Positions 14,085 to 31,820 of a stretch of 64,000 nt of DNA are shown here, one piece after another. Source of the stretch: a bacterium. GTDB lineage: Bacteria > Zhuqueibacterota > QNDG01 > DSAB01. The stretch is taken from contig DSAB01000122.1 in the NCBI GenBank assembly GCA_011388275.1, forward strand, positions 15,491 to 79,490. Reading direction: 5' to 3'. The notes below the pieces were generated by a model. The model was given only the letters and a program-made list of their open reading frames with translations. It searched no databases and was not told the origin of the DNA. How positions within the stretch are numbered: the stretch's first letter is position 1; each line of letters starts with the position of its first letter. The position numbers were made by a program, and so were the translations under genes.

Positions 14085-14103
14085 CTGCTTTATAAAAGGA
14101 CTC

Positions 14104-15948
14104 ATGAATCCAATGAATGTGAAAACCTTTAAATCGGATGTGGATTTTACCGTGCGTATCGCGGGCGAGGGAGGCGAGGGAGTCATCAGCTGCGGCGAAC
14201 TGCTTGCCCAGGCAATCGCCCGGACCGAATACCATGTCTTCACCTATATCACTTACCCGGCGGAGGTTCGGGGCGGATTTTCCATGATTCAGATTCGAGT
14301 CCGGGATTGGACCATTTACAGCATGGGCAGCGAAGTGGATTATCTGGTGGTCTTCAACCAGAAAGCCTATGACCGGACGATACAAGACATCAAGCCGGGA
14401 GGTACGGTCATCTATGACCTCGATGAAGTGGTTCCGGATCAATCCGTTAAGGCGCAAAATGTTCCCATTGCCCTGAATAAAATCCCATTCGAAATCACGG
14501 GCTCCAGACTGGGCAAAAATGTGGTCGCCCTGGGAGCCATGGGCCATCTGTTCGATATCGACAGGAAGCTTCTGTTTCAATTGATGAAGGACAGATACGG
14601 TGCCAAAGGCTCGAATGTGGTTCAAAACAACATCCGGATTCTGGAAGCCGGATTCGAAGCGGGCAGAAAGACAGGCCGGGAGCCCAAATTCCATCTCGGT
14701 TCCGAACCGGACGCCGAAAGCAAATACATGATGCTGTCGGGAAACGAGGCGGTGGCATTGGGAGCTGTGGCCGCGGGCTGCCGCTTTGTGGCCGGTTATC
14801 CCATCACTCCGGCGACGCCGATTTTCGAGACTCTGACTAAAATAATGCCCATGGTCGGCGGCAAGGCCATTCAAATGGAAGACGAGATCGCCTCGATTTC
14901 GGCCATTATCGGGGCTTCGTTCGCCGGGGAGAAAGTCATGACGCCCACGTCCGGGCCCGGGCTGCAGCTGATGGGGGAACAGCTGAACCTGGCTGCCATG
15001 CTGGAGCTTCCCGTTGTGATTATCAATGTGCAGAGGGGTGGGCCCAGTACCGGAATGCCGACCAAGACGGAGCAGTCGGATTTGAAATTCGCCATTTACG
15101 GCACATCCGGAGAGTCGCCGCACGTCATACTGGCGCCGGCAACGGTGGAAGACTGTTTCTATCAAACCATCAGGGCCTTCAATCTGGCGGAACGATTTCA
15201 GCTGCCGGTGATCGTGCTCACGGATCAATCGATCGGGTACCGGAAAGCCACGGTGAAACTGCCCAAATTCAGCGCCATCGAAGAGATCAGGGAAAATGTG
15301 GAGATTGAACATCTGGTGGTTCCGAGTGTGGATAAGATCACCATTGTCAACCGGTTAAAGCCGCGAAAAGAAGACCTCGAAGAGTATCGGCGATTTAAAA
15401 TCACCGGGGACGGAATCTCTCCCATCACAATACCCGGGACTCCAGGAGGACAGTATCTGGGTACCGGCCTGGAACATCGGGAAGACGGACGGGCCGATTA
15501 TACTCCGGCAAACCATCTGGCCATGACACGAAAACGTTTCAATAAATTGAAAACGCTTTCCCGGCGATTTGAGAAGAATCCTCCGGAATATTATGGATCG
15601 CATGACGCGGAGATCGGTATTATCGGATGGGGGTCCACCGAAGGGGCCATTCGCGAGGCGCGGTATATGGCGGAAGAAAAGGGGATCCTGGTGCGCCACC
15701 TTCATCCCAAAGTCATCTCTCCGCTTCCGAACCGGCAAATTCGGCAGTTTCTGCTGGGGTTGAAACAGGTTATGGTGGTCGAAGAAAACTACACCGGACA
15801 ATTCGCCCATTTTATCAAGGGGAAATTCGGTGTCACACCTCTGGAGGTTCATAAATGTGAAGGGGTTCCCATTTCATCGGGAGAGATCTTCAGGGCGATC
15901 GAAAAGGTTGCGAGGATTGTTGATGAAGAGAACATTACAAGATTATAA
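14104..15948 (+). CDS. korA: 2-oxoacid:ferredoxin oxidoreductase alpha subunit (fused gamma-alpha, KorA/OorA-like)
   Basis: N-terminal gamma-like domain (RIAGEGGEGVISCGELLA…), then the alpha core with a pyrimidine-binding domain. Followed by a TPP-binding beta subunit. Confidence 0.8.
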   Translation: MNPMNVKTFKSDVDFTVRIAGEGGEGVISCGELLAQAIARTEYHVFTYITYPAEVRGGFSMIQIRVRDWTIYSMGSEVDYLVVFNQKAYDRTIQDIKPGGTVIYDLDEVVPDQSVKAQNVPIALNKIPFEITGSRLGKNVVALGAMGHLFDIDRKLLFQLMKDRYGAKGSNVVQNNIRILEAGFEAGRKTGREPKFHLGSEPDAESKYMMLSGNEAVALGAVAAGCRFVAGYPITPATPIFETLTKIMPMVGGKAIQMEDEIASISAIIGASFAGEKVMTPTSGPGLQLMGEQLNLAAMLELPVVIINVQRGGPSTGMPTKTEQSDLKFAIYGTSGESPHVILAPATVEDCFYQTIRAFNLAERFQLPVIVLTDQSIGYRKATVKLPKFSAIEEIRENVEIEHLVVPSVDKITIVNRLKPRKEDLEEYRRFKITGDGISPITIPGTPGGQYLGTGLEHREDGRADYTPANHLAMTRKRFNKLKTLSRRFEKNPPEYYGSHDAEIGIIGWGSTEGAIREARYMAEEKGILVRHLHPKVISPLPNRQIRQFLLGLKQVMVVEENYTGQFAHFIKGKFGVTPLEVHKCEGVPISSGEIFRAIEKVARIVDEENITRL

Positions 15949-16777
15949 GAGTCCGATCAAGCCGATCTGGTGTCCCGGCTGCGGCGATTACGGCATACTC
16001 AGGGCCTTGCAGCAGGCTCTGCTGGATCTGAATATCGCGCCGGAAAATATTGTGACTGTTTCGGGCATCGGCTGTTCGGGACGTTTTTCTCACTATTTAA
16101 ACACCTATTCTCTGCACGGAACCCACGGACGGGCCGTGCCTACGGCTCTGGGAGCCAAAGCCGCTCGACCCGATTTAACTGTGCTGGCCATCGGAGGCGA
16201 CGGAGATGGTATGGGAATCGGCGGAGGCCATATTCCCCACGCCGCACGCAAGAATGTGGATATCACCTATTTGCTCATCGACAACCGGATTTACGGGCTG
16301 ACCAAAGGCCAAATGTCTCCCACAACCCCTTTCGGGCAAAAGACCAAGACGTCTCCCTACGGAGTCAGTGAGGCGCCAATGAACGCGCTGGCCGTTTTTC
16401 TGGCCTATGATATTTCATTTATCGCCAGAACGGCGAGCATGAATATTCCGGAGATGACGCAAATACTCAAAGCCGCCATTTCACACCGGGGCATGTCATT
16501 GGTTTACATTTTGTCTCCCTGCATGACTTTCCCGGTTTTAAAATCCAGTGAGATCAAAGAGATGGTGCAACCTCTTCCAAAAGAGCATGACCCGGGTAAC
16601 AAATTGGGGGCTCTGGAGCTGGCCTATACAGAGCGGCCCTTGTATACGGGTATTTTCTATCAGGTGCAAAAACCCGTACTGGAAACACAGCTCAAGCAGC
16701 AGGTTCAGGCGGCTTGCCGGCAACTGGCCGATGGCGAGCCGGTAAGCATCAAACAGCTTCTGAAAAGTTACGTCTGA
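15923..16777 (+). CDS. korB: 2-oxoacid:ferredoxin oxidoreductase beta subunit (TPP-binding)
   Basis: CPGCGDYG motif, GIGCSGR and GGDGDG TPP-binding motifs. Overlaps the korA 3' end by 26 nt. Confidence 0.85.
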   Translation: MKRTLQDYKSPIKPIWCPGCGDYGILRALQQALLDLNIAPENIVTVSGIGCSGRFSHYLNTYSLHGTHGRAVPTALGAKAARPDLTVLAIGGDGDGMGIGGGHIPHAARKNVDITYLLIDNRIYGLTKGQMSPTTPFGQKTKTSPYGVSEAPMNALAVFLAYDISFIARTASMNIPEMTQILKAAISHRGMSLVYILSPCMTFPVLKSSEIKEMVQPLPKEHDPGNKLGALELAYTERPLYTGIFYQVQKPVLETQLKQQVQAACRQLADGEPVSIKQLLKSYV

Positions 16778-16881: not shown

Positions 16882-18285
16882 ATGTTTATGAGCTCGGAAT
16901 TTTATGACCGGGATCTTCCCTGGCTTATTCAAACCTATTTTTCAGATCCGAACCGCGTATGCACGCTGGCACCCGCGCAGGTGTTGATGGAAGAGGGTGA
17001 TTACAATGACCGGCTGTACCTGGTTCTGTCCGGAAGCCTTTTTGGATACGTTCAGCGTTCAGAAGGGCAGCCTTACGAAATGTTTCGGGCCAAGCCGAAT
17101 ATGTTTGTCGGTGTCTACAGTTTTTTCTCGCGGACCTATTCCAGTTCGGTTACGGTGGTCGCGGAAGAGCCGACGCGGCTGGCTTACATGGAAAAGGATC
17201 ATGAGCCGGTTGAGAAAGAAAGGCGGGGAGGTCTTTTCGAGCAGTTCATGCCGGTGGTGATCTCCAATCTGGCCTGGCGCCAGCAGCATGAACTTCAGAT
17301 CGCCTTTGAAAAGGAACGCACTCTGAACAAGCTCATCGAATCCGAAAAGCTGGCTTCTCTGGGACAGATGGCGGCGGGAATCGCTCATGAATTGAACAAT
17401 GCCATTTCGGTGCTGGTCCGGAACACGGAATGGTTCAGGGGCTACTTTACACGGCTCCTGAAATCGCAAAAAAGCCCCTTTTTCCCCTTCTATCAGTTGG
17501 GGCAGACGCAGGGCAGGGTGGTATCGAGCCGGGAGGCCAGACGGTGCGTTCAGAGTCTGAAGAGAAAATGGAATGTTTCCGATGCCGACGCGAAAGATCT
17601 GGGAGAGACCGGTATCACGGATGAGATGCTGGCCTCATATCGAGGCGACGTGGCTCAAGATTCCGGTAAAATCCATGAATTCTGGGAACTGGGAGCCACT
17701 CTTCGGGACATGACTCTGGCCGGGCAGATGGCTTCTCATGTGGTGGCTTCGGTCAGGGCGCTCGCCGGACAGAAGCCGGTGCGGACCATGCAAAACGTAA
17801 ACCGGTCCATCGAGGAAGCGCTGGCACTGCTTCACAGCACGCTGCGTTCGGTTCAGGTGACGACCCGGTTTGAAGAGCTGTCGGACATATCGGCGAACAA
17901 GGGAGAGCTGGTTCAGATATGGACCAACCTGATTCGCAACAGCGTGGAGAGTCTGCACGGGCAGGCCGATCCTCCTCCAGTGGTGACGATTTCGACCCTT
18001 TCAAAGAAAACTTACGTGCTTGTCCAGATCAAGGATAACGGTCCGGGCATTCCAAATGATGTGATGCCGAAGATCATTCAACCGAATTTTACCACCAAAG
18101 AAAAGGGCCTGGAATTCGGTTTGGGTTTGGGGCTTACTATAGTCGCCAAAATTGTGAATAATTACGGGGGTGAGATATTCGCGGCGAGCCGGCCTCATGA
18201 AACGATTTTTACGGTTAAACTTCCCGTATTGCCGCGGCCGGAACAAGCCGGGCCGGATTCCGGTGTGGAGAGATCAGAACAGTGA
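16882..18285 (+). CDS. Cytoplasmic sensor histidine kinase: N-terminal cNMP-binding-like domain + HisKA + HATPase_c
   Basis: H-box LGQMAAGIAHELNNAI. N/G boxes (NLIRNSVESL; IKDNGPGIP; GLGLGLTIV). No TM segments. N-terminal LYLVLSGSLFGY region resembles a cyclic-nucleotide-binding fold. Start uncertain (16846-16888). The terminator at 16810-16845 argues against the long ORF from 16714. Confidence 0.75.
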   Translation: MFMSSEFYDRDLPWLIQTYFSDPNRVCTLAPAQVLMEEGDYNDRLYLVLSGSLFGYVQRSEGQPYEMFRAKPNMFVGVYSFFSRTYSSSVTVVAEEPTRLAYMEKDHEPVEKERRGGLFEQFMPVVISNLAWRQQHELQIAFEKERTLNKLIESEKLASLGQMAAGIAHELNNAISVLVRNTEWFRGYFTRLLKSQKSPFFPFYQLGQTQGRVVSSREARRCVQSLKRKWNVSDADAKDLGETGITDEMLASYRGDVAQDSGKIHEFWELGATLRDMTLAGQMASHVVASVRALAGQKPVRTMQNVNRSIEEALALLHSTLRSVQVTTRFEELSDISANKGELVQIWTNLIRNSVESLHGQADPPPVVTISTLSKKTYVLVQIKDNGPGIPNDVMPKIIQPNFTTKEKGLEFGLGLGLTIVAKIVNNYGGEIFAASRPHETIFTVKLPVLPRPEQAGPDSGVERSEQ

Positions 18286-21200
18286 GCGGTAATATGCCGG
18301 CCGCTCCTGCGCCTCGTTCAGGATAGACATTTTGGATCGTTCCAGAGCCACATACGATTTGCTTCCCCAAATGCGTATGGACCGAAGCGTAGGGCTGTCT
18401 ATTCCGCATGTAATCAGGCGCGGTCCCATGGTCAGGCAGCACAGAGTCTCAACTGTATGGCCCCGCAGGCGGTTGAATGACCAGTGGTTCGGTCCGGTTT
18501 CGAGCACCATCAATGTGCCGTTCTTCGAAGATCGAACCGAACACGATCCGATAAAGAGACGGCCGTTCACATAAGGAGTGATGCACCGTATAGAATCTGT
18601 GGTTTTAAATTTTATGGACTGCCATCTCCCGGAGTCCGATTCCATGACCGTCAAGGAGCCTGTCGACTCGTTTGAAAGGCCTGAAGCAAACCAGGCGAGC
18701 CGGTTGTCATTGAGACGGCACAGGCAATCCTGGCTGCAGCCTGTAGCATGATATTGAGTCCAGGTCCGCCGGTCCGGGTTCCAGATTCCCACGGTTCCCG
18801 ATCCTGCCGCGGCTATTCGTCCGTCAGGCAGTGATGCCAAAGACTGAACCGGCGCAAGGCCGGGCTGAATGGTTTCCATCCTTTCTCTCGGGAAATCCCA
18901 GAAACAGATTTTGCCGTCGGCATGGCCGGTCGTCAGACAGCTCTGTGCGCAGGTCTGCATGCTGGTGACCGCGGAAGGCGTGTCGAAAACAGTCTTCAGA
19001 TTGTGAATAAACGACACAGCGGATATGCGGCCGTCTTCATGGAGCGCAAAGACATGGCCGTGTGTGACGGCCAGACCCATCACGGGCGACGGATTCAGGG
19101 GCAGCGTCCAAAAAAGGCGGTCATTCAGTCCGGACAATACACCGACATGGCCCTCCATGCTTCCGAACGCGATTTGACCCTGCGTATAAAGAGCGATGGC
19201 GGAAATTGGCAGGTCTTCCAGGCCGATACATGAAAGGCAAAAATCGTCGGAGGGAACAGGCGGACAGCGCCTGAATCGGCTTTCTCGGGTCTTTATGGAC
19301 TGATACAGCCAGGATATGGGCCGATGATTGACAGGCAAAGAACGTACTGAGAAATCGGCTTTGCCCTTCAAGGGCCGTTTGAGGACCTGATGATTCTCGA
19401 GAGGGCCGACTCGAATCTGTTTGATCCATCCTCTGACTTTCCGGTTCGCGAATATGGCCTGCATCTCTTCCCGGGTCAGGCGCGAAGGAATGGAATTGTC
19501 GAGATGATAAATCAGGAGCCGGTTGTCCCGGTAAAACGGAGTGTCTTCCAGGGGGATTTGCTCGATAAAGGACAGGTTCGTCCTGACCTTTTCAAGAAAT
19601 CCTTCCCGCTTTTCAAGATTCAGGCGCCGCGTTGACAGGGCGGCCTGAAATTTGACCAGAATATCCAGGCTGCCCATCTCATAGAATCGCTGAATCACCT
19701 GATGAAAATAGGCGTCATCTCTCCATCCATCAAGAATGATCAGGCGTTTTTGATGATGACGTTTTATAAATTGCCGAAAAAATTCATCGGCATTTTCGTG
19801 GAGATCCAGGTTGTCCATGGAATAAATATCCGGTGTAACGGTTGTTTGAAGCTTTTTCAGGCCGATCAGACGATTGAATATCTGAACATGGGCCGCATTG
19901 TCCCTCATCAGGTAGAGGATTTCATGCGGCCGGACAGGACCGAATCCGCTTTCAAGAACATGACAAAAATAGGTTTTTCCGGTACCTGAGTCGCCGGTAA
20001 CGGCCATGATCGCGGGCTGACGGGTTTGCATGACATAAAACAGGGATTCGGAAAGCTCATAGAGACCCGTTCGACTGGGTTTCAGCGCCAGAACGGGAAG
20101 CGCGTTGAAGTGGGGAAGGTACAGGGCATAGAGAAAGTTGGGAAGGCCCAGTTTTTTCATGGCCATGACGGCCTCTTCAAAAACCCGGTTATGCCGATTC
20201 TGCATCAGCCTCATCAGATCGATTGGAATGCGGGCATCAAGACCTCCTGATTTTGATTTTTGTGTTCGGCCCAGTTCTCCCAGGGCCCAGGCCCAATAGA
20301 TCTGATCTTCGGGTTTATCAGGAGGGTCCTGATCAAGCAGCTTTTTCAAACTTTCCGGGATTTTCCATTTGCCCAATGTCCAGCAGAATTCGCTCCACTC
20401 AGGTCCAGAGCGCCGGTTTTTCGGGTTTTTCACGGAGAGAGCCGTATCAATGAACTCTCTAAAGTAACGTTTTCCCTTCTCCTGACCCAGGCCGTAGATC
20501 AGCTGAAGACGAAGATTTGAATGCGTATCGGAACACTTTCGAAGAAGCCTCAGAAAGGGACGAATCTTCCGTGTATCGGAAAGTGGAGCCAGAATATTGG
20601 CTGCCTGATACGGAAGACCTGTTTCGATTCGCGATTGAGTCAGAAGACGGAGAGCCGGTCGAATCAGGGGGCGGATGCCGTCATTTTTTACCGCCGGCTG
20701 TGTGATCAATTCCTGAATGAATTCAATCGCATCATCCCGCTGTTTCGGATCATGGAGAAGATGCATCCAGTGATCGATTCGCCCCTGGATCTTTGATTCG
20801 GCGGCGAGAAATGTTGATGATTTCAACAGTTCCCGGCCCGGTTCCCATGATTCCATCCATTGATTGATCGAATTGAGAAAAATTCCCTGGGGACTTGCGT
20901 TTTTCCGTTTCAGCCAGTCTGCGGCTCGCTGCTGCCATTGTGATGCATGAACATCCCACGATGGAGCCTTCTGGCCGAACAGAACGGTCTGCCGCCGGAT
21001 TTCAAGCAGGGCGATCAGCATTTCAAAGAAACGGACACTTTCGGGGCGGGACTGATTGCGCGTTTGAATATCAGGGAATGTAAATATAGGCTCCATTCTG
21101 TTCAGCAGTGGCGTGATCCAGTCCATGTCTTCGATTCCCGATCTCCACAGCCAGTGAGCTGTTTCATTATTGGCTGCCGCACGCGATGTGAAAACAAGAG

Positions 21201-21309
21201 TTTTCCAGTTACCCCGGCGTGATAAACAGACAAAATCGTCGAAGGGATAAACCTTCATGATACTTCGCAGAGAGCTTCGTACTTGTTCTGTCCAGTCGGT
21301 TTTTATCAT
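18274..21309 (-). CDS. 1011-aa multidomain protein: N-terminal HEAT (PBS-lyase-type) repeats, central NB-ARC/STAND-like P-loop NTPase, C-terminal WD40 beta-propeller
   Basis: HEAT-like repeats at aa about 260-390 (…IYGLGQEKGKRYF…; …IYWAWALGELGRT…AVMAMKKLG). Walker A VTGDSGTGKTYF at aa 437-448. Kinase-2-like KRLIILDGWRDD about 85 aa downstream (compare NB-ARC KRFLLVLDDVW). From aa about 700, repeated GH…(D/N)G…W(D/N) units (GHVGVLSG, HGHVFALHEDGRISAV, GHADGKICFWDF, TVGIWNP, RLRGHT…IRIWG). Its ATG overlaps the stop of the upstream response-regulator gene (ATGA). Confidence 0.7.
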   Translation of the reverse strand: MIKTDWTEQVRSSLRSIMKVYPFDDFVCLSRRGNWKTLVFTSRAAANNETAHWLWRSGIEDMDWITPLLNRMEPIFTFPDIQTRNQSRPESVRFFEMLIALLEIRRQTVLFGQKAPSWDVHASQWQQRAADWLKRKNASPQGIFLNSINQWMESWEPGRELLKSSTFLAAESKIQGRIDHWMHLLHDPKQRDDAIEFIQELITQPAVKNDGIRPLIRPALRLLTQSRIETGLPYQAANILAPLSDTRKIRPFLRLLRKCSDTHSNLRLQLIYGLGQEKGKRYFREFIDTALSVKNPKNRRSGPEWSEFCWTLGKWKIPESLKKLLDQDPPDKPEDQIYWAWALGELGRTQKSKSGGLDARIPIDLMRLMQNRHNRVFEEAVMAMKKLGLPNFLYALYLPHFNALPVLALKPSRTGLYELSESLFYVMQTRQPAIMAVTGDSGTGKTYFCHVLESGFGPVRPHEILYLMRDNAAHVQIFNRLIGLKKLQTTVTPDIYSMDNLDLHENADEFFRQFIKRHHQKRLIILDGWRDDAYFHQVIQRFYEMGSLDILVKFQAALSTRRLNLEKREGFLEKVRTNLSFIEQIPLEDTPFYRDNRLLIYHLDNSIPSRLTREEMQAIFANRKVRGWIKQIRVGPLENHQVLKRPLKGKADFSVRSLPVNHRPISWLYQSIKTRESRFRRCPPVPSDDFCLSCIGLEDLPISAIALYTQGQIAFGSMEGHVGVLSGLNDRLFWTLPLNPSPVMGLAVTHGHVFALHEDGRISAVSFIHNLKTVFDTPSAVTSMQTCAQSCLTTGHADGKICFWDFPRERMETIQPGLAPVQSLASLPDGRIAAAGSGTVGIWNPDRRTWTQYHATGCSQDCLCRLNDNRLAWFASGLSNESTGSLTVMESDSGRWQSIKFKTTDSIRCITPYVNGRLFIGSCSVRSSKNGTLMVLETGPNHWSFNRLRGHTVETLCCLTMGPRLITCGIDSPTLRSIRIWGSKSYVALERSKMSILNEAQERPAYYRSLF

Positions 21310-22073
21310 GGCGTCAGGGCCAGAAAAGAAAGTTCTTCATGGAGGTTCAGGGGTGCCAGGATTAAAATCCATCCCCTGTCATACGGATCGTTTCGTGCCG
21401 GCTGTAAATTGTCTTTCATAATTGAATGGATTTCCAGCAGGCATCCTGACACGGGAGACCACATTCGGTGAATACGGCACTCCTGGTCATAAATTTGCAG
21501 ACACGTGTTTCCCTGATAGATGGTTTCATTGATCTCCGGGAATTCCAGTCTGGTTACTCCGGGGATGGTCTTTAAAAAAACAGGATGAATGCCTACGCGG
21601 ACGGCTCCATTGGGCAATACCTGAGCCCAGGCGTGATCAGGAATCAGGTAGTAATTGGAAGGGGCCGATTCGGTGTCTCGGTTGTTTGGGGATTGCTTCA
21701 AAGAAAGCCGTTTGTGAACCAGTGCCCTCTTGACGAGGGCGCGGAGTTCTTCAGGTGTAAATGGTTTCGGAATATAATCGAATGCGCCGTTCTTAATGGA
21801 TTGAACCGCCGTGCGCGTGGAAGGGTAGCCGGTCACCATTATGATCTGAGTGCCTGGTCTTTTCTTTTTCAGGATTGTTAAAATATCCATGCCGCTCATT
21901 CCGGGCATCATAATATCGAGAATCATAATGTCAAATGCGTCCTCGAGTGCCAAACGGAGCCCTTCTTCACCGCTTAATGCCGTGCAGACTTCATACGAAT
22001 TTTCCAAAGCAGCGGCCATACTTTGGCAGACAGAAATTTCGTCGTCGACAATCAATACTCTGGATTGATTCAT
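21306..22073 (-). CDS. Response regulator: canonical REC domain fused to a glycine-cleavage H-protein (GcvH)-like C-terminal domain that lacks the lipoyl-lysine
   Basis: REC with DD(10-11), D53, T81, K103. C-terminal 115 aa aligns by eye to GcvH (YLIPDHAWA… / VGIHPVFLKTIPGVTRLEFPEIN… / …SPVSG… / DPYDRGWILILAP, compare GcvH DPYGEGWIFKIK). The lipoyl-Lys position of the ESVKA motif is occupied by Cys. Confidence 0.75.
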   Translation of the reverse strand: MNQSRVLIVDDEISVCQSMAAALENSYEVCTALSGEEGLRLALEDAFDIMILDIMMPGMSGMDILTILKKKRPGTQIIMVTGYPSTRTAVQSIKNGAFDYIPKPFTPEELRALVKRALVHKRLSLKQSPNNRDTESAPSNYYLIPDHAWAQVLPNGAVRVGIHPVFLKTIPGVTRLEFPEINETIYQGNTCLQIYDQECRIHRMWSPVSGCLLEIHSIMKDNLQPARNDPYDRGWILILAPLNLHEELSFLALTP

Positions 22074-22420
22074 GTGTCACCCCTTGAAGAAGTGCCGTTG
22101 TTCTTCACGGTTAAGGGGATCAGCAGCCCGGTGAAAAAACCGCCCCTTCAGTATCGGTGAGTGAGAGGATAAGGTTATCTTCATCATTTCGGATTCGTAT
22201 CAATTCCTTTATCGTCTAGAATAGTATACGATTACGGATTAACGAAAGCAAGCAATTTGTATCGGTATTCTGAAGCCGAATCCAAACAGGCGTTTTGGCA
22301 TCGTCCGGCGGCCAATAAAAATCTAAGGGAAATATTGGAGAATCGAATGATTTTTTAGTGAATTATATCACAAAAAAACTTGACAAAAATTTAAATTTAT
22401 TGTATATTTTCTCGGATTTA

Positions 22421-22438
22421 TTGTGAACGGTTTAACAA
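22421..22438. promoter_or_regulatory. Candidate Rex operator (TTGTGAACGGTTTAACAA) upstream of rex
   Basis: Matches the Rex box consensus TTGTGAA-N4-TTCACAA with one mismatch. Lies 50 nt upstream of the rex start in an AT-rich promoter region. Confidence 0.5.
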
Positions 22439-22487: not shown

Positions 22488-23120
22488 ATGACACAAACAG
22501 GCAAAAGCGCATCCCGTCTGCCCTGTTACCGCCGCGCGCTGATGCGTTTCAAGGAGCTGGGATTCGACAGGGTTTATTCAGAATCGCTCGCTGAATCGGT
22601 GGGTGTCACCTCTTCCCAGGTGAGGAAGGATTTTTCCGTATTCGGCATTTCAGGCAATAAAAAGGGCGGCTATCAGATTGAGACCCTGCTCGATCAACTC
22701 CGTATTATCCTGAAAAAGGACCAGATCCATCCGGTTATACTGGTTGGGGTGGGCAATATCGGGACGGCCCTGATGAACTACAGGGCTTTTGAAAGGGAGA
22801 ATATTGAAATCGTCGCCGGATTCGACATCGATCCGTCGAAGATCAATAAAAAGATGAAAATTCCTGTTCTGCCCATCAACGCGATGGATGATTATTTAAA
22901 ACACCATCAGGTTCGAATAGGCATCATCACGGTGCCGGCGTTGACGGCTCAGCAGGTGTGCAACCGAATGGTTTCTGCAGGCATTAAAGGGATACTGAAT
23001 TTCGCTCCAATCCGGCTGAAAGTGCCGGATGATACCATGATCGAGAATGTGAGTGTGCTGTTAAAACTGGAAAACATCATTTATTTTGTTGAACCCGTTG
23101 TAAACACCGAACCCATTTAA
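22488..23120 (+). CDS. rex: Redox-sensing transcriptional repressor Rex
   Basis: N-terminal winged helix (RLPCYRR…SSQVRKDFS) and Rossmann NADH-binding domain (VILVGVGNIGTAL). 210 aa. Confidence 0.9.
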   Translation: MTQTGKSASRLPCYRRALMRFKELGFDRVYSESLAESVGVTSSQVRKDFSVFGISGNKKGGYQIETLLDQLRIILKKDQIHPVILVGVGNIGTALMNYRAFERENIEIVAGFDIDPSKINKKMKIPVLPINAMDDYLKHHQVRIGIITVPALTAQQVCNRMVSAGIKGILNFAPIRLKVPDDTMIENVSVLLKLENIIYFVEPVVNTEPI

Positions 23121-23133
23121 CCGGAGCCTTTTC

Positions 23134-24159
23134 ATGAGAGCAGTCAAAATCAAGAAGGAAAATCTGTTTGATTTTCTCGAGGCCATCAAGCCTTTCGGTG
23201 ACTTATGGGGTCCTGTGAAAAGCGGAGACGGATATGTCCTGGAGAAAGTGACCGATTATTCGAACATCGAGATGTCGGCTCTGAGAACCAGGATTCCGTT
23301 CAAGAAACTGCTTTTTCCGCCCAAATTCACCATGTTCAAGTTTGATGAGAAGGGGATTCGTTCTTCCGACGAGGAACTCCCGAGACAGGTGATTTTCGGG
23401 CTGCATCCCTGCGATCTTCATGCTTTGCTCATTATGGACAATTTTCACAGTCTTCATTATGTCGATCCCTATTATCGGGAGCGCCGGGAGAGAACGGCCG
23501 TAATCGGTCTTTCGTGTTTTCCGGATGACCGCTGTTTCTGCAAGGCCACCAATACACATTACACGGAGAAGGGGTTTGATCTTTTTCTGACCGATCTGGG
23601 AGATTTCTACATTCTCTGGATCGGATCGAGTCTGGGTGACGACATGGTTCGCGAATGTCCCGAGCTTGTCGATGAGGAGGTCACTCACGACGACCTGGAA
23701 AAGTACATCGCCTGGCGAAAGAAAAGAGAGTCCAATTTTAAACTGAAACTGGATTTCACGGGCATGCCCAGTATCATGGAGCTCAGTTATGACAGTCCTT
23801 TGTGGGACGAACTGGGAGAAAAATGCCTCAGCTGCGGCGCCTGCACCATCGTGTGTCCGACATGTCCCTGCTTCAATGTGATCGATGAAGTGGATATCGG
23901 CGGCGGCACCGGAGAGCGTACCCGCCGCTGGGATTCCTGCATGTTCAGAGAATACTCCATGGTGGCCGGAGGACATAATTTCCGGGAGGCCCGGTCCGAA
24001 CGGCTCAAGCTGCGATTCACCCACAAGCTTCAGGCTTTTGTCGGCGCCTTCGGTGAAGCCGCGTGTGTAGGGTGCGGCCGCTGCATCGGAGCCTGTCCCG
24101 TGGATATCGACATACAGACCGTGGCGCAGAATCTGAAAGGCGAGGAGGTGAAGGCATGA
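23134..24159 (+). CDS. Group-3b (sulfhydrogenase-type) hydrogenase beta subunit: Fe-S protein of the HydB/AsrA family
   Basis: C-terminal Cys clusters CLSCGACTIVCPTCPC and CVGCGRCIGACP. 13 nt after rex with a GGAG RBS. Followed by gamma, small and large subunits. Confidence 0.75.
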   Translation: MRAVKIKKENLFDFLEAIKPFGDLWGPVKSGDGYVLEKVTDYSNIEMSALRTRIPFKKLLFPPKFTMFKFDEKGIRSSDEELPRQVIFGLHPCDLHALLIMDNFHSLHYVDPYYRERRERTAVIGLSCFPDDRCFCKATNTHYTEKGFDLFLTDLGDFYILWIGSSLGDDMVRECPELVDEEVTHDDLEKYIAWRKKRESNFKLKLDFTGMPSIMELSYDSPLWDELGEKCLSCGACTIVCPTCPCFNVIDEVDIGGGTGERTRRWDSCMFREYSMVAGGHNFREARSERLKLRFTHKLQAFVGAFGEAACVGCGRCIGACPVDIDIQTVAQNLKGEEVKA

Positions 24160-25010
24160 AAGCGGAAACACAGCTGCAGAATCCTTACGAACCGGAACCC
24201 ATGCGCCTGATACGACGATACCCTCTGAATGAGGACGTGCATTTTTTCCAGGTTCGCGCGGTGGATATGGAGAAGGCGCTCAGCCTGAATTATCTGCCCG
24301 GCCAGTTCATGATGATCTCTATCAACGGGATCGGAGAAGCCCCGTTTTCCATCTCTTCGACCCCCTCGAGGCCGGGTCTTCTGGAATTCGGTATTCGGAA
24401 AGTGGGCAATATGACCAACCGGATCTTTCAGCTGAAAGAAAACGGCATTTTCGGCGTGCGCGGGCCTTACGGCAACGGTTTTCCGATCGAGAAAATAAAG
24501 GGGAACGATCTGGTGATCATCATGGGCGGTCTGGGCGCGGTTCCGCTTCGATCCCTTCTTTTATACGCGCTCGATAATCGTGATCAGTTTGGAAAGATCT
24601 ATCTGCTGCACGGCGCCCGCACTCCGGATGAGATGCTTTTCCGGAATGAATTTTTTAATATGATGAAACGGGACGATCTTTTCTGCCATCTCACCGTAGA
24701 TCAGGACGATACCGGACAGTGGCCCTTTGAGACAGGCGTGGTCACCCGTCTTTTCGGCAAACTGGCCCATATCGATCCGAAGAACACCTATTTCGCCGTG
24801 TGCGGTCCTCCGGTCATGTATAAATTTGTGGTGGCGGAAATATTAAAATTGAATGTTCCCAAGCATCAGATTCTGATGACTCTGGAACGGCGCATGAAAT
24901 GCGGAGTGGGGAAATGCGGTCATTGCATTATCGGCGGGTATATTTATACCTGCCTGGAGGGACCCGTGTTTTCCTATTGGGACGTGCTTCACATGAAGGG
25001 ACTTATCTAA
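24156..25010 (+). CDS. Hydrogenase gamma subunit: FAD/NAD(P)-binding ferredoxin-reductase-like with C-terminal 2Fe-2S (HydG/AsrB family)
   Basis: FNR-like fold (flavin-binding GEAPFSIS-type motif, NAD-binding GGLGAVPLRS). C-terminal CGVGKCGHC…C cluster. ATGA overlap with the beta gene. GAGGAGG RBS. Confidence 0.75.
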   Translation: MKAETQLQNPYEPEPMRLIRRYPLNEDVHFFQVRAVDMEKALSLNYLPGQFMMISINGIGEAPFSISSTPSRPGLLEFGIRKVGNMTNRIFQLKENGIFGVRGPYGNGFPIEKIKGNDLVIIMGGLGAVPLRSLLLYALDNRDQFGKIYLLHGARTPDEMLFRNEFFNMMKRDDLFCHLTVDQDDTGQWPFETGVVTRLFGKLAHIDPKNTYFAVCGPPVMYKFVVAEILKLNVPKHQILMTLERRMKCGVGKCGHCIIGGYIYTCLEGPVFSYWDVLHMKGLI

Positions 25011-25011
25011 T

Positions 25012-25806
25012 ATGAGGAGTCAACTCGTGAGTCAGGAAAAAAAATCGGTTGGTCTCTACGGTTTTACCGGCTGCAACGGAGACCAGCTTGTGATCATCCA
25101 TAGCGAGGACCAGCTTCTTCCATTCTTCGATTCCGCGAATATCAAGTCCTTTTCCCTGGCGAAAAGCGACAACGATAATTCCGAGCTCGATCTGGCTTTT
25201 GTGGAAGGATCCATATCCAGTCAGGAGCAGGCGGAGCATGTTAAGGCGATTCGGGAGCGGACCCGGTATCTGGTGGCCATCGGCAATTGCGCGTGTTACG
25301 GCGGCATACAGGCCATGGAGCTGGGAGCCAAAGGATGGGATCAGCGGTTCAGAAAAGTATACGGCGACGGATTCTTTATCAACCGCACACCGATCGAATC
25401 CAAGCCCATCGATGTGTTCGTCAATGTGGATTTCTATCTGCCTGGATGCCCCATCGATGCCCGGCAGTTTTTCTACTGTTTCGCCCATTTTCTGCAGGAT
25501 GATGAGCCGGTTTTTCCCGATTATCCTGTTTGCGCGGAATGCCGCTGGCGGGAAAACGACTGTCTGCTCCTGAAAGGAGAGCTTTGTCTGGGGCCGCTCA
25601 CCGCGGCAGGATGCGGAGCCCGATGCCCCAGTCATAATCTGACCTGTCTGGGGTGTTGGGGCCCCATGAAAGAAGCCAATATCGGCGCGGAGTTTAATCT
25701 GCTGAAGGAGAAAGACTATTCACTCGAAGAGATCAAGCGTCGGTTCCGCATGCATACCGGCAGCGGAATGATGAAACCCTTGAAGAAATTATTGGGAGCC
25801 TTATAA
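25012..25806 (+). CDS. [NiFe]-hydrogenase small (delta) subunit, cytoplasmic group-3 type
   Basis: GLYGFTGCNGD proximal-cluster motif and CPGCP motif. 264 aa. No Tat signal. Confidence 0.8.
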   Translation: MRSQLVSQEKKSVGLYGFTGCNGDQLVIIHSEDQLLPFFDSANIKSFSLAKSDNDNSELDLAFVEGSISSQEQAEHVKAIRERTRYLVAIGNCACYGGIQAMELGAKGWDQRFRKVYGDGFFINRTPIESKPIDVFVNVDFYLPGCPIDARQFFYCFAHFLQDDEPVFPDYPVCAECRWRENDCLLLKGELCLGPLTAAGCGARCPSHNLTCLGCWGPMKEANIGAEFNLLKEKDYSLEEIKRRFRMHTGSGMMKPLKKLLGAL

Positions 25807-27092
25807 TGCGTGAAATCGTGGTTGAACCACTCTCCCGCGTGGAAGGGGAAGGCGGCATTACCGTCCAGCTGGACGGAAAGCGGATCAAGGATGTCCGTTT
25901 TGATATATTGGAAGGAACACGGCTTATCGAAACACTGGTGGTCGGAAAAACACCTCAGGAAGATGTGAGTATCGCCTGCCGAATCTGCGCGATCTGCACC
26001 CTTTCCCATCGGTATGCCGCGTTGAGGGGGCTGGAAAAGGCCCTGGGCATCGAGATACCTCCCAAGGCGCATCACATGCGCAGCCTCATGCATCTGGGCG
26101 AATGCCTGGAGAGCAACTCTCTTCACGTGTTCGTTCTGGCGCTGCCCGACTTTCTGGGTTATCCTTCGGCGATTGCCATGGCCGAGAAATACGGCAATGA
26201 GGTGACTCAGGCTCTGGCATTGAAGAAATTCGCCAATCACATCATGGAGGTGACCAGCGGCCGTATGATTCACGGCGAGAATCCGACCATAGGCGGATTC
26301 GGCCGGTATCCGGACCGGGAAGTTCTCCTGAACATCAAAAAGCAGGCCAGGGATTTCCTGGAATTCGCCGTGTACGGCACCAATCTTGTGGCCGGGCTGG
26401 ACATTCCTTCCTTTTTTGAGAAAGAAACCGTATTCATGTGCTGTGAGCCCGGAAATGAGTTCGGCCTCATGGGTGACTCGATTCGCATTTCCACCGGGGA
26501 GGTCGTGGACTGTAACGACTATAAAAAACTGACCAATGAGAAATTCTGTCCGCATTCGGCGGCCAAGCACTGTCTTTATAAAGGAAAACCATTTACGGTG
26601 GGGGCTCTCGCCCGCGTCAACAATCTTGGTGAGCGCCTGAAGGGCCAGGCCGGAAAACTGTTCAAAAAGCACTGGAATGATCGCTGGCTGAAAAATCCGA
26701 TCTACAACAACCACGCCCAGGCTGTTGAGATTGTATGGGCTCTCGAGCAGATCCCGGGAGTGGTCGATGATATCCTGAAAATCAAGGAGGATCCCGCTCT
26801 GGTCAAACCCGCCCGGACCGAAGGCGAAGGGGTCGGCGCGGTTGAGGCGCCCCGCGGGACTCTGTACCATCATTATCAAATCAAGGATGGTCTGATCGCG
26901 GACGCCAACTTTATCATCCCAACGGGTCAGAACCTTGAAGACATTGAGAAATACATGCGGCTGGCTGTTCAGGGGATGATCGACCAGGGCGCCGATGATG
27001 ACGCGATTCGTCTGCAGCTGGAAATCATCTGCCGTGCCTATGACCCCTGCATCAGCTGTTCGACCCATATGGTAAGGATTGAGCGTGTCTGA
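25806..27092 (+). CDS. [NiFe]-hydrogenase large (alpha) subunit, group 3b
   Basis: N-terminal RICAICTLSH (CxxC) and C-terminal DPCISCSTH (CxxC…H) Ni-Fe ligand motifs. The C-terminal extension after H is a substrate for the maturation protease. Confidence 0.85.
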   Translation: MREIVVEPLSRVEGEGGITVQLDGKRIKDVRFDILEGTRLIETLVVGKTPQEDVSIACRICAICTLSHRYAALRGLEKALGIEIPPKAHHMRSLMHLGECLESNSLHVFVLALPDFLGYPSAIAMAEKYGNEVTQALALKKFANHIMEVTSGRMIHGENPTIGGFGRYPDREVLLNIKKQARDFLEFAVYGTNLVAGLDIPSFFEKETVFMCCEPGNEFGLMGDSIRISTGEVVDCNDYKKLTNEKFCPHSAAKHCLYKGKPFTVGALARVNNLGERLKGQAGKLFKKHWNDRWLKNPIYNNHAQAVEIVWALEQIPGVVDDILKIKEDPALVKPARTEGEGVGAVEAPRGTLYHHYQIKDGLIADANFIIPTGQNLEDIEKYMRLAVQGMIDQGADDDAIRLQLEIICRAYDPCISCSTHMVRIERV

Positions 27093-27609
27093 AAATGATC
27101 TGGAAGGCGCCCTTAACCGGCTGGTTCCCCCGAAAAAATGCCTTGTCATCGGTCTGGGAAACGCCGACCGGGCCGACGACGGTCTGGGACTGATTATATC
27201 GGAAAAATTGAAGGCCCGTTTTCCAAGTCGGGCCTTTTCCGAAAGAGAATCTCCTCCCGAGAACATTGTTCTTGACCACCTGAATGATGAGAAAGTGAAA
27301 GGGTTTCTTTTTATCGATGCCATGGATTTCGGCGGCAGGCCGGGAACCTTCCGCATTTTTACATGGGATGACGCGTCCCGTTTCGTGCCCTCTCTTTCCA
27401 CTCATAAGGTGCCCATGACACTGATCATGTCCATTATAAATCAGCATGATAAAGTGCCTCTGCTCCTGGGAGTGCAGCCGGAGTCTGTTGAGCTGATGGG
27501 TGAATTGACCGAACCGGTAAAGCACACCCTGGTCCGCCTGGAGTCCATTCTGGAGCGATGGCTCGAACAGAACGAACAAGGCGAGAAGACTTCAAATGAG
27601 TCATTGTGA
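27079..27609 (+). CDS. Hydrogenase maturation endopeptidase (HoxW/HycI family)
   Basis: LVIGLGNADRADDGLG motif typical of hydrogenase maturation proteases. Follows the large subunit with a small overlap. Confidence 0.7.
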   Translation: MSVSENDLEGALNRLVPPKKCLVIGLGNADRADDGLGLIISEKLKARFPSRAFSERESPPENIVLDHLNDEKVKGFLFIDAMDFGGRPGTFRIFTWDDASRFVPSLSTHKVPMTLIMSIINQHDKVPLLLGVQPESVELMGELTEPVKHTLVRLESILERWLEQNEQGEKTSNESL

Positions 27610-28115: not shown

Positions 28116-29120
28116 ATGGCAGAACGCTACTTTATCGGTAAAGTGCAATGGAGCACTCTTCTCGGTGGCTGGATGGAGAAATACCAGATTTTGGCGCCCC
28201 AGAAGCATGAAGGGGGACTTTTTCTGGAGCCCGTCAGCATGGAAAATCTGTCCACGATTGTCTATGATGCAGCGCGGGCCGTGCAGCCCCTGAAAGCCTT
28301 TCTGTTTCCGGCGCTGGAAGAGGTGACTGGAGAAAAGGCCGAGCCGGAAAAACCCTGGCTCTTTCTGGGAATCAAGGCGTGCGGCCTTTCGGCTCTGCCC
28401 ATTCTGGATCAGGCCTATGGCGGTGAATTCGCCGATCCCCATTATCAGAAACGGCGCCAGGAGAGTCTTATCGTCAGTTCGGATTGTTCGCAGCCGTGGG
28501 AGACCTGTTTCTGTACACTGATCGGCGGAAAGCCTTATCCCTCAGAAGGTTTCGATCTCAATCTTTCCAAAGTCTGGGATGGTTTTATCGTGGAGGCAGG
28601 CAGCGCACGGGGCAAGGCTCTGCTGGAGGGGCATGATGAAGTCCTGAAAGAAGTGGTGAAGGAGGAAGCGGAAGCACTCGACAAGATGCGCAAGGAGACC
28701 GTTTCAAAGATCGAAAAGCAGAACAAGGAGTACCGTCTGCCCGCCGATCTTCAAAAATTGATGGCGGGATCCTGGGAATCCGATGTATGGAAGGTTCATT
28801 CAGAAACCTGCGTGGAATGCGGTGCCTGCAACCATGCCTGTCCGACCTGCCACTGTTATTTCCTGGATGATGTGACCCGCAAAGAGTTTGTCAAGCTCAG
28901 AGGGTGGGACGCCTGTCAATATTCCGGATATGCGGTTACAGCCGGCGGAGGCACACCCAGACCCCATCTGTATGAACGGTTTCGCAATCGGTATTTCTGC
29001 AAGATAAAGTATCTCTTTGAAAACTACAACCGTCTCGGCTGCACGGGATGCGGCCGTTGCATCGAAGGATGTCAGGGACGCATCGATATGCGTGCTGCGC
29101 TGAACGATCTGACAAAATAA
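28116..29120 (+). CDS. Second sulfhydrogenase-beta/AsrA-like Fe-S subunit (paralog of 23134..24159)
   Basis: Same architecture and Cys motifs (CVECGACNHACPTCHCYFLDD; CTGCGRCIEGCQG). Confidence 0.7.
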   Translation: MAERYFIGKVQWSTLLGGWMEKYQILAPQKHEGGLFLEPVSMENLSTIVYDAARAVQPLKAFLFPALEEVTGEKAEPEKPWLFLGIKACGLSALPILDQAYGGEFADPHYQKRRQESLIVSSDCSQPWETCFCTLIGGKPYPSEGFDLNLSKVWDGFIVEAGSARGKALLEGHDEVLKEVVKEEAEALDKMRKETVSKIEKQNKEYRLPADLQKLMAGSWESDVWKVHSETCVECGACNHACPTCHCYFLDDVTRKEFVKLRGWDACQYSGYAVTAGGGTPRPHLYERFRNRYFCKIKYLFENYNRLGCTGCGRCIEGCQGRIDMRAALNDLTK

Positions 29121-29134
29121 GGGACCAATTTTCC

Positions 29135-29953
29135 ATGGGTCAGCCAAAGAATCCATATCAGCCGGTCAAAGCCGTTATTGAGAATATCATCGACGAAACT
29201 CCCGGGATCAAGACGTTTGTAATTAAACCTGAAGAGGCATTCGGTTTTCATTGCGGCCAGTTTGCCGAATTGACGGTGCCGGGGGTGGGGGAAGGGCCTT
29301 TTGCCATGTCGTCGCCCTGCCATAAACCCGAGATGCTGGAATTTACCATTCAAAATGTCGGTTACATGACCCAGCGGCTGCACAAGATGAAAAAGGGAGA
29401 TGTGGTGGGTGTTCGCGGTCCTTACGGCAACGGGTTCCCTCTGGAGAAGTATTACGGCAAGGAGGTGGTGCTGCTTATCGGAGGAGTGGGTTTTCCCCCT
29501 GCCCGTGCCTTGCTTTACAGCCTGCTTCATGAAAAGGATAAATTCAAGCGCCTTCTGATGTGTTACGGAGCCAGGACACCCCAGGATGTTGTGTACAAAT
29601 ATCAAATCGAAGATTTTCGCAAACAAATCGAACTCCATATGACGGTAGACAAGGCCGACGAGAGCTGGAAAGAGACGGAAGGCGTTGTCACTGTTCTGCT
29701 GGACAAAGTCAATTTTGATTTGAAAAATGCCGTGTCTGTGGTTATCGGTCCGCCGATCATGATGAAATTCGGGACTCTGAAACTCCTGGAAAAGGGTTTC
29801 AAACCCAGGGACATCTTTCTTTCCATGGAAAGAAAGATGTACTGCGGCATCGGACAGTGCCGCCATTGCATGATCGATCATCTATTCATCTGCAAGGACG
29901 GCCCTGTGTTCACTTATCAAGAGCTCAAGGACTTTCCTGACATTTGGGAATGA
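29135..29953 (+). CDS. Second sulfhydrogenase-gamma/AsrB-like FAD/NAD(P)-binding subunit with 2Fe-2S
   Basis: FNR-like domains (GEGPFAMSSP; LLIGGVGFPPARA). C-terminal CGIGQCRHCMIDHLFICKDG cluster. Confidence 0.7.
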   Translation: MGQPKNPYQPVKAVIENIIDETPGIKTFVIKPEEAFGFHCGQFAELTVPGVGEGPFAMSSPCHKPEMLEFTIQNVGYMTQRLHKMKKGDVVGVRGPYGNGFPLEKYYGKEVVLLIGGVGFPPARALLYSLLHEKDKFKRLLMCYGARTPQDVVYKYQIEDFRKQIELHMTVDKADESWKETEGVVTVLLDKVNFDLKNAVSVVIGPPIMMKFGTLKLLEKGFKPRDIFLSMERKMYCGIGQCRHCMIDHLFICKDGPVFTYQELKDFPDIWE

Positions 29954-30444
29954 GTATGGCAAAACGGCTATTCATCGATCTGGAAAAATGCCGCGAATGC
30001 GGCGAGTGTGAGGTTTCATGCAGTTATTTTTATCATCCCTTCAATGACGGGGTGATGTATCTGCGGGAACTGGCTGAATTCGCCACGACATGCCGTCACT
30101 GCGACGAAGCGCCTTGCGTCAAGAGCTGTCCCACGGACGCGCTGGAGAAGCTGGAAGACGGCATTCTGAAGCGGTATAACCTTCGCTGTGTTTCCTGTAA
30201 AAGCTGCAGCTATGCCTGCCCCTTCGGCACGATTTTGCCGGAACTTTTGCCTTATGCCGTGTCACGGTGTGATTTTTGTATTGGAAGGTTGAAAGAGGGT
30301 GAATCGCCTGTTTGTGTCGGAGGCTGTACTGAGGGCGCCGTCATGTACGGAGAATTCGAGCCGGATCAAAAAGAACATCGATTTTTGGTCGGAGAACATC
30401 TGGTCGTTCATTCAATTCCGTGGAAAAAGGAAGAATACGTATAG
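29950..30444 (+). CDS. Polyferredoxin-like 4Fe-4S subunit (HycB/MbhN-type electron transfer protein)
   Basis: Four Cys clusters (CRECGECEVSC; CRHCDEAPCVKSCP; CVSCKSCSYACP; CDFCIGRL…CVGGC). Start among the ATG/TTG codons at 29944-29956 is uncertain. Confidence 0.7.
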   Translation: MSMAKRLFIDLEKCRECGECEVSCSYFYHPFNDGVMYLRELAEFATTCRHCDEAPCVKSCPTDALEKLEDGILKRYNLRCVSCKSCSYACPFGTILPELLPYAVSRCDFCIGRLKEGESPVCVGGCTEGAVMYGEFEPDQKEHRFLVGEHLVVHSIPWKKEEYV

Positions 30445-30445
30445 T

Positions 30446-31372: not shown

Positions 31373-31376
31373 TCTC

Positions 31377-31802: not shown

Positions 31803-31820
31803 AAAATAGAAGAGGATTGA

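Follow-up and report, generated by a model that had tools for sequence, protein, structure and literature searches.

We analyzed a 64,000-nucleotide (nt) stretch of contig DSAB01000122.1 (assembly GCA_011388275.1), hereafter the window, and found on its reverse strand a gene for a two-component response regulator whose output domain has the fold of the glycine-cleavage H protein (GcvH), stripped of the lipoyl-lysine. Across the loci that we collected, this regulator belongs to a three-gene module together with a histidine kinase and a large unannotated partner protein carrying HEAT-like repeats, a P-loop domain and a WD40 region. The module with its partner is the main addition of this work; the fusion of a receiver domain (REC) to a GCV_H domain was already visible in automatic annotation.

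The output domain of the regulator has an H-protein fold

The segment that the earlier note had flagged, 21309..21669 (-), corresponds to residues ~136-255 of a 255-aa open reading frame (ORF). The gene and its domains are as follows:

21306..22073 (-): response-regulator gene, 255 aa, REC plus lysine-less GcvH-like domain (ORF list, Pfam)
21732..22058 (-): REC domain, aa 6-114 (Pfam PF00072 Response_reg, E 1.8e-28)
21915..21917 (-): codon of the phospho-acceptor Asp53, in the receiver domain
21327..21644 (-): GcvH-like (H-protein fold) output domain, aa 144-249 (Pfam PF01597, phmmer against PDB, AlphaFold2 (AF2)/Foldseek)

By Pfam, the regulator consists of REC, a linker of ~25 aa and the GcvH-like domain, and no DNA-binding, AAA+ or enzymatic domain was found in its 255 aa. 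A protein identical to it (P0001) is present in public data from metagenome-assembled genomes (MAGs), where it is labelled just 'response regulator'.

The receiver was closest to AtoC/NtrC-type receivers (NCBIfam, E 9e-27). Residues D10, D11, the acceptor D53, T81 and K103 are all present and were invariant in 120/120 family members, these being the clusters listed by our protein search for a family of at least 120. The receiver fold, acidic pocket, phospho-acceptor Asp, Thr/Ser and Lys that mark a response regulator were thus all found, and with its catalytic residues intact the receiver looks functional and phospho-accepting.

The match to GCV_H (PF01597) covered aa 144-249 and profile positions 4-108 of 122 (E 3.6e-8). 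The whole protein scored 33.8 bits and the domain by itself 36.4, where the gathering cut-off is 22.2. When the C-terminal 124 aa were searched against PDB sequences with phmmer, the 13 top matches were all H-proteins, and the best was 3tzu_A (E 6.5e-12, query residues 9-116 of 124). NCBIfam GcvH models were matched at E 1e-10 to 1e-7, and the GcvH equivalog models TIGR00527 and NF002270 were not passed (35.4 vs 115.85 bits and 40.8 vs 117 bits, respectively).

We then modelled aa 136-255 with AF2 on a 41-sequence family alignment, which gave a mean predicted local distance difference test score (pLDDT) of 94.9 and a predicted TM-score (pTM) of 0.88. Foldseek returned 22 PDB matches at E <= 0.001, all of them H-proteins or GcvH-L, with TM 0.74-0.86. 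The E. coli H-protein (3a8i_E/3a8k_E/3a7a_B) matched at E ~2e-9 and TM 0.84-0.86, with a root-mean-square deviation of 1.9-2.0 A over 116-118 columns, and biotinyl/lipoyl domains were the next class at TM < 0.45. The output domain is accordingly modelled as a true H-protein (hybrid barrel-sandwich) fold, and a chance likeness to GcvH was ruled out by the Pfam, PDB and fold scores. The earlier note had proposed by eye that the C-terminal ~115 aa resemble GcvH over their full length, and had named a missing GCV_H match or a fold other than that of H-protein as contrary outcomes. Neither arose in the HMMER search against Pfam or in the structure prediction and fold search that it had suggested, and Pfam, phmmer, NCBIfam and Foldseek agree on the resemblance. 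The gene is therefore a two-component response regulator with a GcvH-fold output domain that has lost the lipoyl-lysine.

The lipoyl-lysine is lost and a flanking patch is conserved

Two features of the output domain bear on its function:

21477..21479 (-): codon of Cys199, the hairpin-tip counterpart of the H-protein lipoyl-lysine (MAFFT alignment, DSSP of the model)
21456..21515 (-): family-specific conserved patch on either side of the former lipoyl hairpin, Y186-Q187-G188 ... H202-R203-x-W205-S-P207 (conservation counts)

We aligned the 120 family members with E. coli GcvH in MAFFT. In this alignment the Lys of ESVKA pairs with Cys199, each 8 residues ahead of the P in PVSG, and the Lys-to-Cys replacement that had been claimed for the lipoylation position is seen; the HMMER pairwise alignment with 3tzu offsets that position by one residue, to Glu198. 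DSSP on the model showed the hairpin turn at Q197-E198-C199-R200. Because K168 and K220 are the only lysines of the domain, with none between residues 169 and 219, the hairpin is predicted to be incapable of lipoylation. A Pfam scan of 42 window ORFs, the larger ones, identified none for a lipoate ligase, LipA/B, gcvT/P or Lpd, and no second GcvH-like ORF was found in the 64-kb window.

Across the 120 members, the lipoyl column held G in 39, D in 22, K in 17, E in 12 and N in 9, besides others, with Cys outside the eight commonest residues. Lys stood one column ahead of it in 13/120 members. When representatives at 50% identity were considered, Lys was at the lipoyl column in 4 of the 79 that are REC-fused. 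We rejected a meaningful role for Cys at this position, as the column is variable across the family; Cys199 is incidental, and the family trait is the loss of the lysine.

The conserved patch sits on the two strands beside the former hairpin. In the Y-Q-G strand, Q was present in 119/120 and G in 120/120 members, and in the H-(R/K)-x-W-(T/S)-P strand the counts were 106/120 for H, 116/120 for R or K, and 120/120 for both W and P. E. coli GcvH has S-A-G and S-D-I-Y-A-P at the places of the patch. Overall, the GcvH-like domain was conserved on par with the receiver.

The regulator family is sizeable and found in uncultivated lineages

A homologue search of 5.8 billion proteins, clustered at 90% identity, gave at least 120 clusters with REC + GCV_H, all of 250-280 aa and 43-50% identical to the query. 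We also searched a profile of the C-terminal domain against 1.84 billion representatives and obtained 7,922 matches at E <= 0.001, of which 2,071 reached E <= 1e-10, totals that include true GcvH; among the best 149 representatives (50% identity), 79 were REC-fused. The family spans several candidate and FCB-type phyla. By record title, its members were labelled Cloacimonadota, Aminicenantes, WOR-3, Gemmatimonadota, Eisenbacteria, KSB1 and Calditrichota, all from MAGs, and Chlorobiota holds a divergent pair of REC + GcvH-like genes.

The architecture had been called unusual. This held in that it is rare among response regulators and that no paper on REC-GCV_H regulators or on the HEAT/P-loop/WD40 partner was found in the full-text literature, but the family is sizeable and was already labelled automatically, the JGI pipeline naming it 'CheY-like chemotaxis protein/glycine cleavage system H lipoate-binding protein'. 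The search for further fusions and their neighbours, also proposed earlier, yielded both the clusters above and the conserved downstream gene described below.

The divergent Chlorobiota genes (L026:966-2968) lie in tandem, encode 265 and 384 aa, and are 27-29% identical to the query; they have no adjacent partner and do not retain the H-(R/K)-x-W patch. The profile search also returned lysine-less GCV_H domains in other architectures (P0242, P0371, P0389, P0260, P0346). P0242 (1,391 aa) combines three tandem GCV_H domains with FAD_binding_4/FAD-oxidase_C, Fer4 and two CCG (HdrB-like) domains, and P0371 (561 aa) has a weak periplasmic-binding-protein (PBP)-like domain with GCV_H and an Arg at the lipoyl column. 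Tandems of GCV_H of 413-444 aa also have no Lys at the lipoyl column.

The regulator is encoded next to a conserved, translationally coupled partner gene

We collected 23 loci from a search with the GcvH-like domain (8-sequence alignment) and further loci by exact-protein look-up, 36 in all. For the partner count, we used the regulator-anchored loci with enough downstream sequence (n = 31), and a partner homologue was directly downstream of REC-GCV_H in 23 of them. In the window, the regulator gene ends in TGA (21308..21306) and the following gene starts with ATG (21309..21307), the two genes sharing 4 nt (ATGA, 21306..21309). Spacing was measured in 17 partner-positive loci, where the window showed this overlap and nine others had a 2-nt gap; such spacing is typical of co-translated partners.

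The order kinase, regulator, partner was kept across loci labelled Cloacimonadota, Gemmatimonadota, WOR-3, Eisenbacteria, KSB1 and Calditrichota. Look-ups anchored on the partner gave the same result, with kinase, REC-GCV_H and partner found together in 3/3. All-against-all clustering of the ORFs from 26 of the first 27 loci showed no further broadly conserved gene. The idea that the domain mediates a protein-protein interaction, one of those raised in the earlier note, gains support because the downstream HEAT/P-loop/WD40 gene is both conserved and translationally coupled. Both it and the swinging-arm mimicry suggested beside it are hypotheses.

The partner combines HEAT-like repeats, a P-loop domain and a WD40 region

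The partner gene and its parts are located as follows:

18274..21309 (-): partner gene, 1,011 aa, HEAT-like repeats / P-loop kinase-like / WD40 (ATGA overlap with the regulator, homologue comparison)
19375..20118 (-): central P-loop domain, aa 398-645 (conservation profile, AF2, Foldseek)
19972..19995 (-): Walker A, G439-DSGTGKT446 (invariant in the conservation profile)
18277..19242 (-): WD40 beta-propeller region, ~aa 690-1011 (weak matches of its own, Pfam matches of homologues)

The window partner passed no Pfam, NCBIfam or PDB-sequence threshold and gave just sub-threshold WD40, Beta-prop and AAA matches; its weak PDB sequence matches were WD40 proteins. Its homologues form one coherent family of ~1,010-1,080 aa, labelled hypothetical, 'HEAT repeat' or 'WD40 repeat', and bear HEAT_2/HEAT_PBS and many WD40/beta-propeller Pfam matches. 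The HEAT-type repeats at the N-terminus and the WD40 propeller at the C-terminus are thus predicted mainly via the homologues.

The conservation profile was highest in the centre (aa ~400-640), which holds an invariant Walker A (GDSGTGKT), the motif LIILDG and the arginine-rich motif STRRLNLEKREG (S-T-R-R-x-N-L-E-x-R-E). The partner probably binds and hydrolyses nucleoside triphosphate (NTP), because the Walker A is invariant and the LIILDG and arginine-rich motifs are conserved. The AF2 model of aa 398-645 had a pLDDT of 80.1. Foldseek with this domain gave 17 matches at E <= 0.001, all nucleoside/nucleotide-type P-loop kinases, and the top 50 were dominated by adenylate, UMP/CMP, thymidylate, uridine-cytidine and adenylylsulfate (APS) kinases, phosphoribulokinase (PRK) and gluconokinase. 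On these matches, we describe the partner centre as 'P-loop kinase-like' and assign it to no named kinase family.

The repeat-NTPase-repeat layout of the partner led us to consider a STAND/AAA+ NTPase. This was not supported, with NACHT/nSTAND/AAA Pfam matches below cut-off (best E 6e-4) and no STAND, AAA+ or RecA protein in the Foldseek top 50. A role as a defence system was likewise not supported, with no PADLOC match.

Histidine kinases of the module and of the window

The kinase typical of the family has a Cache_3-Cache_2/HAMP/HisKA layout of ~660 aa and is nearest to AtoS/ZraS. It was directly upstream of the regulator in 17/24 clustered regulator loci and in all six later regulator-anchored look-ups. 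The sole kinase of the window is of another kind:

16882..18285 (+): cytoplasmic histidine kinase with a cNMP-binding domain, 467 aa (Pfam cNMP_binding + HATPase_c)

This gene runs towards the partner gene, and the 3' ends of the two share 12 nt; the kinase has no membrane sensor. The H-box reads AAGIAHELNN, and the dimerisation and histidine phosphotransfer (DHp) and catalytic (CA) domains were 45% and 34% identical, respectively, to those of the family Cache kinases. No second receiver-domain protein was found in the 64-kb window. The cNMP-binding kinase is a plausible candidate for the cognate kinase and may replace the Cache kinase in this genome.

Redox and fermentation genes recur beside the module

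Divergent from the regulator gene and upstream of it is a redox operon:

22488..27609 (+): rex and, after it, the genes for the four subunits of an NAD(P)H-type [NiFe] hydrogenase (Fer4_22, FAD/NAD-binding, small, large) and for a HycI protease (Pfam)

Five KSB1/Calditrichota-type loci (L002, L029, L032, L033 and L034) have the same hydrogenase operon just upstream of the triad, and in the Aminicenantes locus L006 it directly follows a regulator that has no adjacent partner. The stretch L036:1-4815, just upstream of a hybrid kinase gene and the triad, encodes an HdrA-like flavoprotein (1,020 aa), FlpD (MvhD-like), Fer4_22 and FAD/NAD subunits and a ferredoxin-like protein, which together may be an electron-bifurcating module where other loci have the hydrogenase. 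A 431-aa gene of the acetyl-CoA hydrolase/transferase family was found between the Cache kinase and REC-GCV_H in eight loci of the Eisenbacteria/Gemmatimonadota-type group (L010, L013, L017, L019, L022, L028, L030 and L035); its product was 75-82% identical in seven of the eight, L035 being assigned by Pfam only.

Redox genes were thus adjacent in at least four lineages. The redox and CoA-transferase neighbours are lineage-specific, and their recurrence is unlikely to be by chance. By adjacency only, this suggests that fermentative and redox metabolism is the process under control.

The intergenic region shared by the regulator gene and the rex/hydrogenase operon contains two Rex-operator-like inverted repeats, TAGTGAATTATATCACAA at 22356..22373 and TTGTGAACGGTTTAACAA at 22421..22438. 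They flank the -35/-10 elements of a near-consensus promoter (TTGACA 22380 ... TATATT 22408) before the operon. The pattern TTGTGAANNNNTTCACAA (<= 2 mismatches) had two matches in the 64 kb, both of them these repeats, where 0.22 were expected.

A proposed phospho-switched pseudo-H-protein and its alternatives

The output of the regulator is probably protein binding rather than DNA binding, and post-translational rather than transcriptional, because the gene nearly always next to it encodes the conserved, coupled HEAT/P-loop/WD40 protein. In the mechanism that we propose, a sensor kinase (periplasmic Cache/HAMP elsewhere; here most likely the cNMP-binding kinase nearby or another encoded beyond the window) would phosphorylate Asp53, and this would change the presentation of the pseudo-H-protein domain. 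The domain would then bind or release its co-translated partner through the surface flanking the hairpin (Q187, H202, R203 and W205), and binding or release would switch the NTP-dependent activity or scaffolding of the partner. The data show the domain identities, the fold, the lack of the lysine, the intact receiver residues, the family size, the gene order with its start/stop coupling and the kinase-like class of the P-loop domain; we infer that the two proteins touch physically, that this surface is the one used, and which kinase, direction of regulation and physiological target apply here. We give this phospho-switched pseudo-H-protein about an even chance of being correct.

A broader claim goes further than we would readily commit to, and we lean slightly against it while regarding it as a real possibility. 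It holds that Cache kinase, REC-pseudo-H-protein and HEAT/P-loop-kinase-like/WD40 hub form a new kind of pathway, in which an extracellular metabolite signal is turned into a post-translational, NTP-dependent output by a lipoyl-carrier decoy docking on a eukaryote-style scaffold. Such a pathway would control NAD(P)H/H2-linked fermentation in many uncultivated phyla (WOR-3, KSB1, Cloacimonadota, Eisenbacteria, Gemmatimonadota, Calditrichota and Aminicenantes).

Several observations weigh against binding of the partner as the output. The partner was not adjacent in 8/31 loci, namely a WOR-3 subgroup (L001 and L007-L009), the Aminicenantes locus L006, L014, L022 and the divergent Chlorobiota locus L026. 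The main weakness is that the patch is kept in loci without an adjacent partner gene and so does not track the presence of the partner; it may serve another contact, or the partner may be encoded elsewhere in those genomes. No regulator-partner fusion was found among 120 partner homologues, and the usual Cache kinase is absent from the 64-kb window. As to the activity of the partner, the matches to P-loop kinases were weak (E 1e-4 to 1e-3, TM 0.33-0.43), and sequence profiles of the P-loop domain against PDB and Pfam gave just generic P-loop proteins (RAD51/KaiC/AAA_18/TsaE, E > 1e-5). The adjacency of the hydrogenase is a correlation only.

The pseudo-H-protein could dock on a redox or metabolic enzyme, such as the diaphorase part of the hydrogenase, the Hdr-like module or the CoA-transferase, and tune electron or carbon flux by phosphorylation. 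Canonical H-protein has the P, T and L proteins as its docking partners, the last of which is an FAD/NAD(P)H oxidoreductase. The hydrogenase operon with its Fer4_22 and FAD/NAD subunits neighbours the module in the window and in the KSB1/Calditrichota-type loci, and in Aminicenantes it directly follows a regulator that has no adjacent partner. The HdrA-like/FlpD/Fer4_22/FAD-NAD module of L036, the CoA-transferase gene between kinase and regulator in 8 loci, and the fusion of a related lysine-less GCV_H to an FAD-oxidase/Fer4/CCG enzyme in P0242 point the same way. However, it is the HEAT/P-loop/WD40 gene that shows wide conservation and tight coupling, while these neighbours are lineage-specific and most loci have no nearby redox genes, and we consider redox docking unlikely. 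It is also improbable that the GcvH-like domain is a mere dimerisation or autoinhibitory appendage, the receiver signalling by itself (CheY-like or as a phosphate sink) and the downstream gene being co-expressed with no direct binding. The receiver is fully canonical and the patch is retained where an adjacent partner is lacking, as such an appendage would allow; but the conservation of the GcvH-like domain matches that of the receiver, and the invariant surface-type residues Q187, W205, H202 and R/K203, which are absent from bona fide H-proteins, argue for a specific ligand or partner. To our knowledge, the H-protein fold has no role as a dimerisation module.

The family-specific residues cluster on the hairpin-flanking strands, a region that we take, from the pea and E. 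coli H-protein structures, to line the cleft of the lipoamide arm in H-protein. This cleft, remodelled with His/Arg/Trp/Gln, might bind a metabolite and make the domain a small-molecule sensor that joins a cytoplasmic ligand to the kinase signal, and a lysine-less relative is indeed fused to a periplasmic-binding-protein-like domain (P0371). We know of no ligand-binding precedent for GcvH folds, and a sensor would leave the tight coupling to the downstream gene unexplained, which makes this account very unlikely. Lowest of all we place a domain that is still a covalent carrier through another residue, either Cys199 here or a hairpin Lys in a minority of members. The Cys of the window protein is exactly at the hairpin tip, and Lys is at the lipoyl column in 17/120 members and one column earlier in 13/120. 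Yet no position of the region is less conserved than the tip (G, D, K, E, N, R and others), where Cys is rare; a dependence on the tip residue would conserve it. The paucity of Lys in REC-fused representatives (4/79) and the lack of lipoate ligase, LipA/B, gcvT/P and Lpd among the Pfam-scanned window ORFs speak against a carrier as well, and we regard it as extremely improbable.

Comparison with known systems

The window domain is homologous to GcvH (PF01597; E. coli 3a7l/3ab9, T. thermophilus 1onl) over its full length, with the motifs VGI, LPE, PVSG and DPY..GW in common. It differs in the loss of the lipoyl-lysine, in a hairpin tip that is variable and one residue longer, and in the replacements of SAG by YQG and of SD(I/V)Y by H(R/K)xW. 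It is also fused to REC and scores below the equivalog cut-offs, with no gcvT/gcvP/lpd among the scanned window ORFs. A functional GcvH, LbpA or GcvH-L was rejected on these grounds (no lysine, sub-equivalog scores, and no ligase or gcv genes among the scanned ORFs), and the regulator should not be filed as an H-protein because lysine, equivalog scores and gcv context all fail.

GcvH-L of the SirTM/macrodomain operon (5a35) was a structural match to the window domain (E 4e-6, TM 0.75), and the chlamydial 'not_gcvH' TIGR03077 and the 'GcvH-related protein' NF045810 were weak sequence matches to the window protein. Like the window domain, GcvH-L and LbpA (sHdr sulfur oxidation) are H-protein folds recruited outside glycine cleavage. 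Both reportedly keep the lysine, are lipoylated and stand alone, with dedicated ligases; the window protein, unlike them, has no lysine, is REC-fused and has no ligase among the scanned window ORFs. No sHdr or sirtuin/macrodomain/LplA2 genes were found in the window or the 36 loci, and beside the HdrA-like/FlpD module of L036 the regulator is still REC-fused.

In its proposed logic, the regulator is closest to PhyR, a receiver with a degenerate sigma-factor-like domain, and RssB, a receiver with a pseudo-PP2C domain, both of which use a dead mimic as output to bind a partner protein. There too a receiver controls a degenerate copy of a known domain with a protein-protein output, and for PhyR the partner gene nepR is next door; the likeness is one of analogy, not homology. 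The output fold is unrelated, and the partner here is a giant HEAT/P-loop/WD40 protein rather than an anti-sigma factor or the target of a protease adaptor. By sequence, the window receiver and the family kinases are most like the NtrC/AtoC regulators with their AtoS/ZraS kinases, but the window regulator has no sigma-54 AAA+ domain and no helix-turn-helix, the GcvH-like domain alone following the receiver.

Most response regulators bind DNA, and the protein-binding minority (CheY, PhyR and RssB) each revealed a new regulatory logic. The present system is still a two-component system and resolves no long-standing question. It does add a well-populated family, confined to uncultivated lineages in these data, whose output is a disabled copy of a carrier from central metabolism, and so a concrete example of reuse of the H-protein fold after loss of lipoate. 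Two 'hypothetical' families become one testable module, in which the 1,000-residue partner has no Pfam, NCBIfam or PDB annotation. The module is tied to hydrogenase and redox clusters that are relevant to fermentation and H2 cycling in sediments and digesters.

Other genes of the window

The soluble hydrogenase operon is followed directly by a hydrogenase cluster of the membrane-bound (group-4-like) type at 28116..38042 (+). In it, another pair of Fer4_22 + FAD/NAD genes precedes Fer4_11, NuoH-like, Oxidored_q6, 30-kDa, 49-kDa/NiFe large-subunit and Mrp/Proton_antipo_M genes. At 7405..11802 (+) and 14035..16777 (+) are genes for a 1,020-aa BcrAD_BadFG activase/DUF2229 fusion, a DUF2229-like neighbour, an OPT transporter and a two-gene 2-oxoacid:ferredoxin oxidoreductase, which are consistent with a fermentative anaerobe. 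The region 40197..45816 encodes a MerR-family regulator, a DUF6051 protein and a B12-binding radical-SAM protein, and on the opposite strand a DUF1847 gene lies by a NUBPL/ParA-type Fe-S P-loop NTPase.

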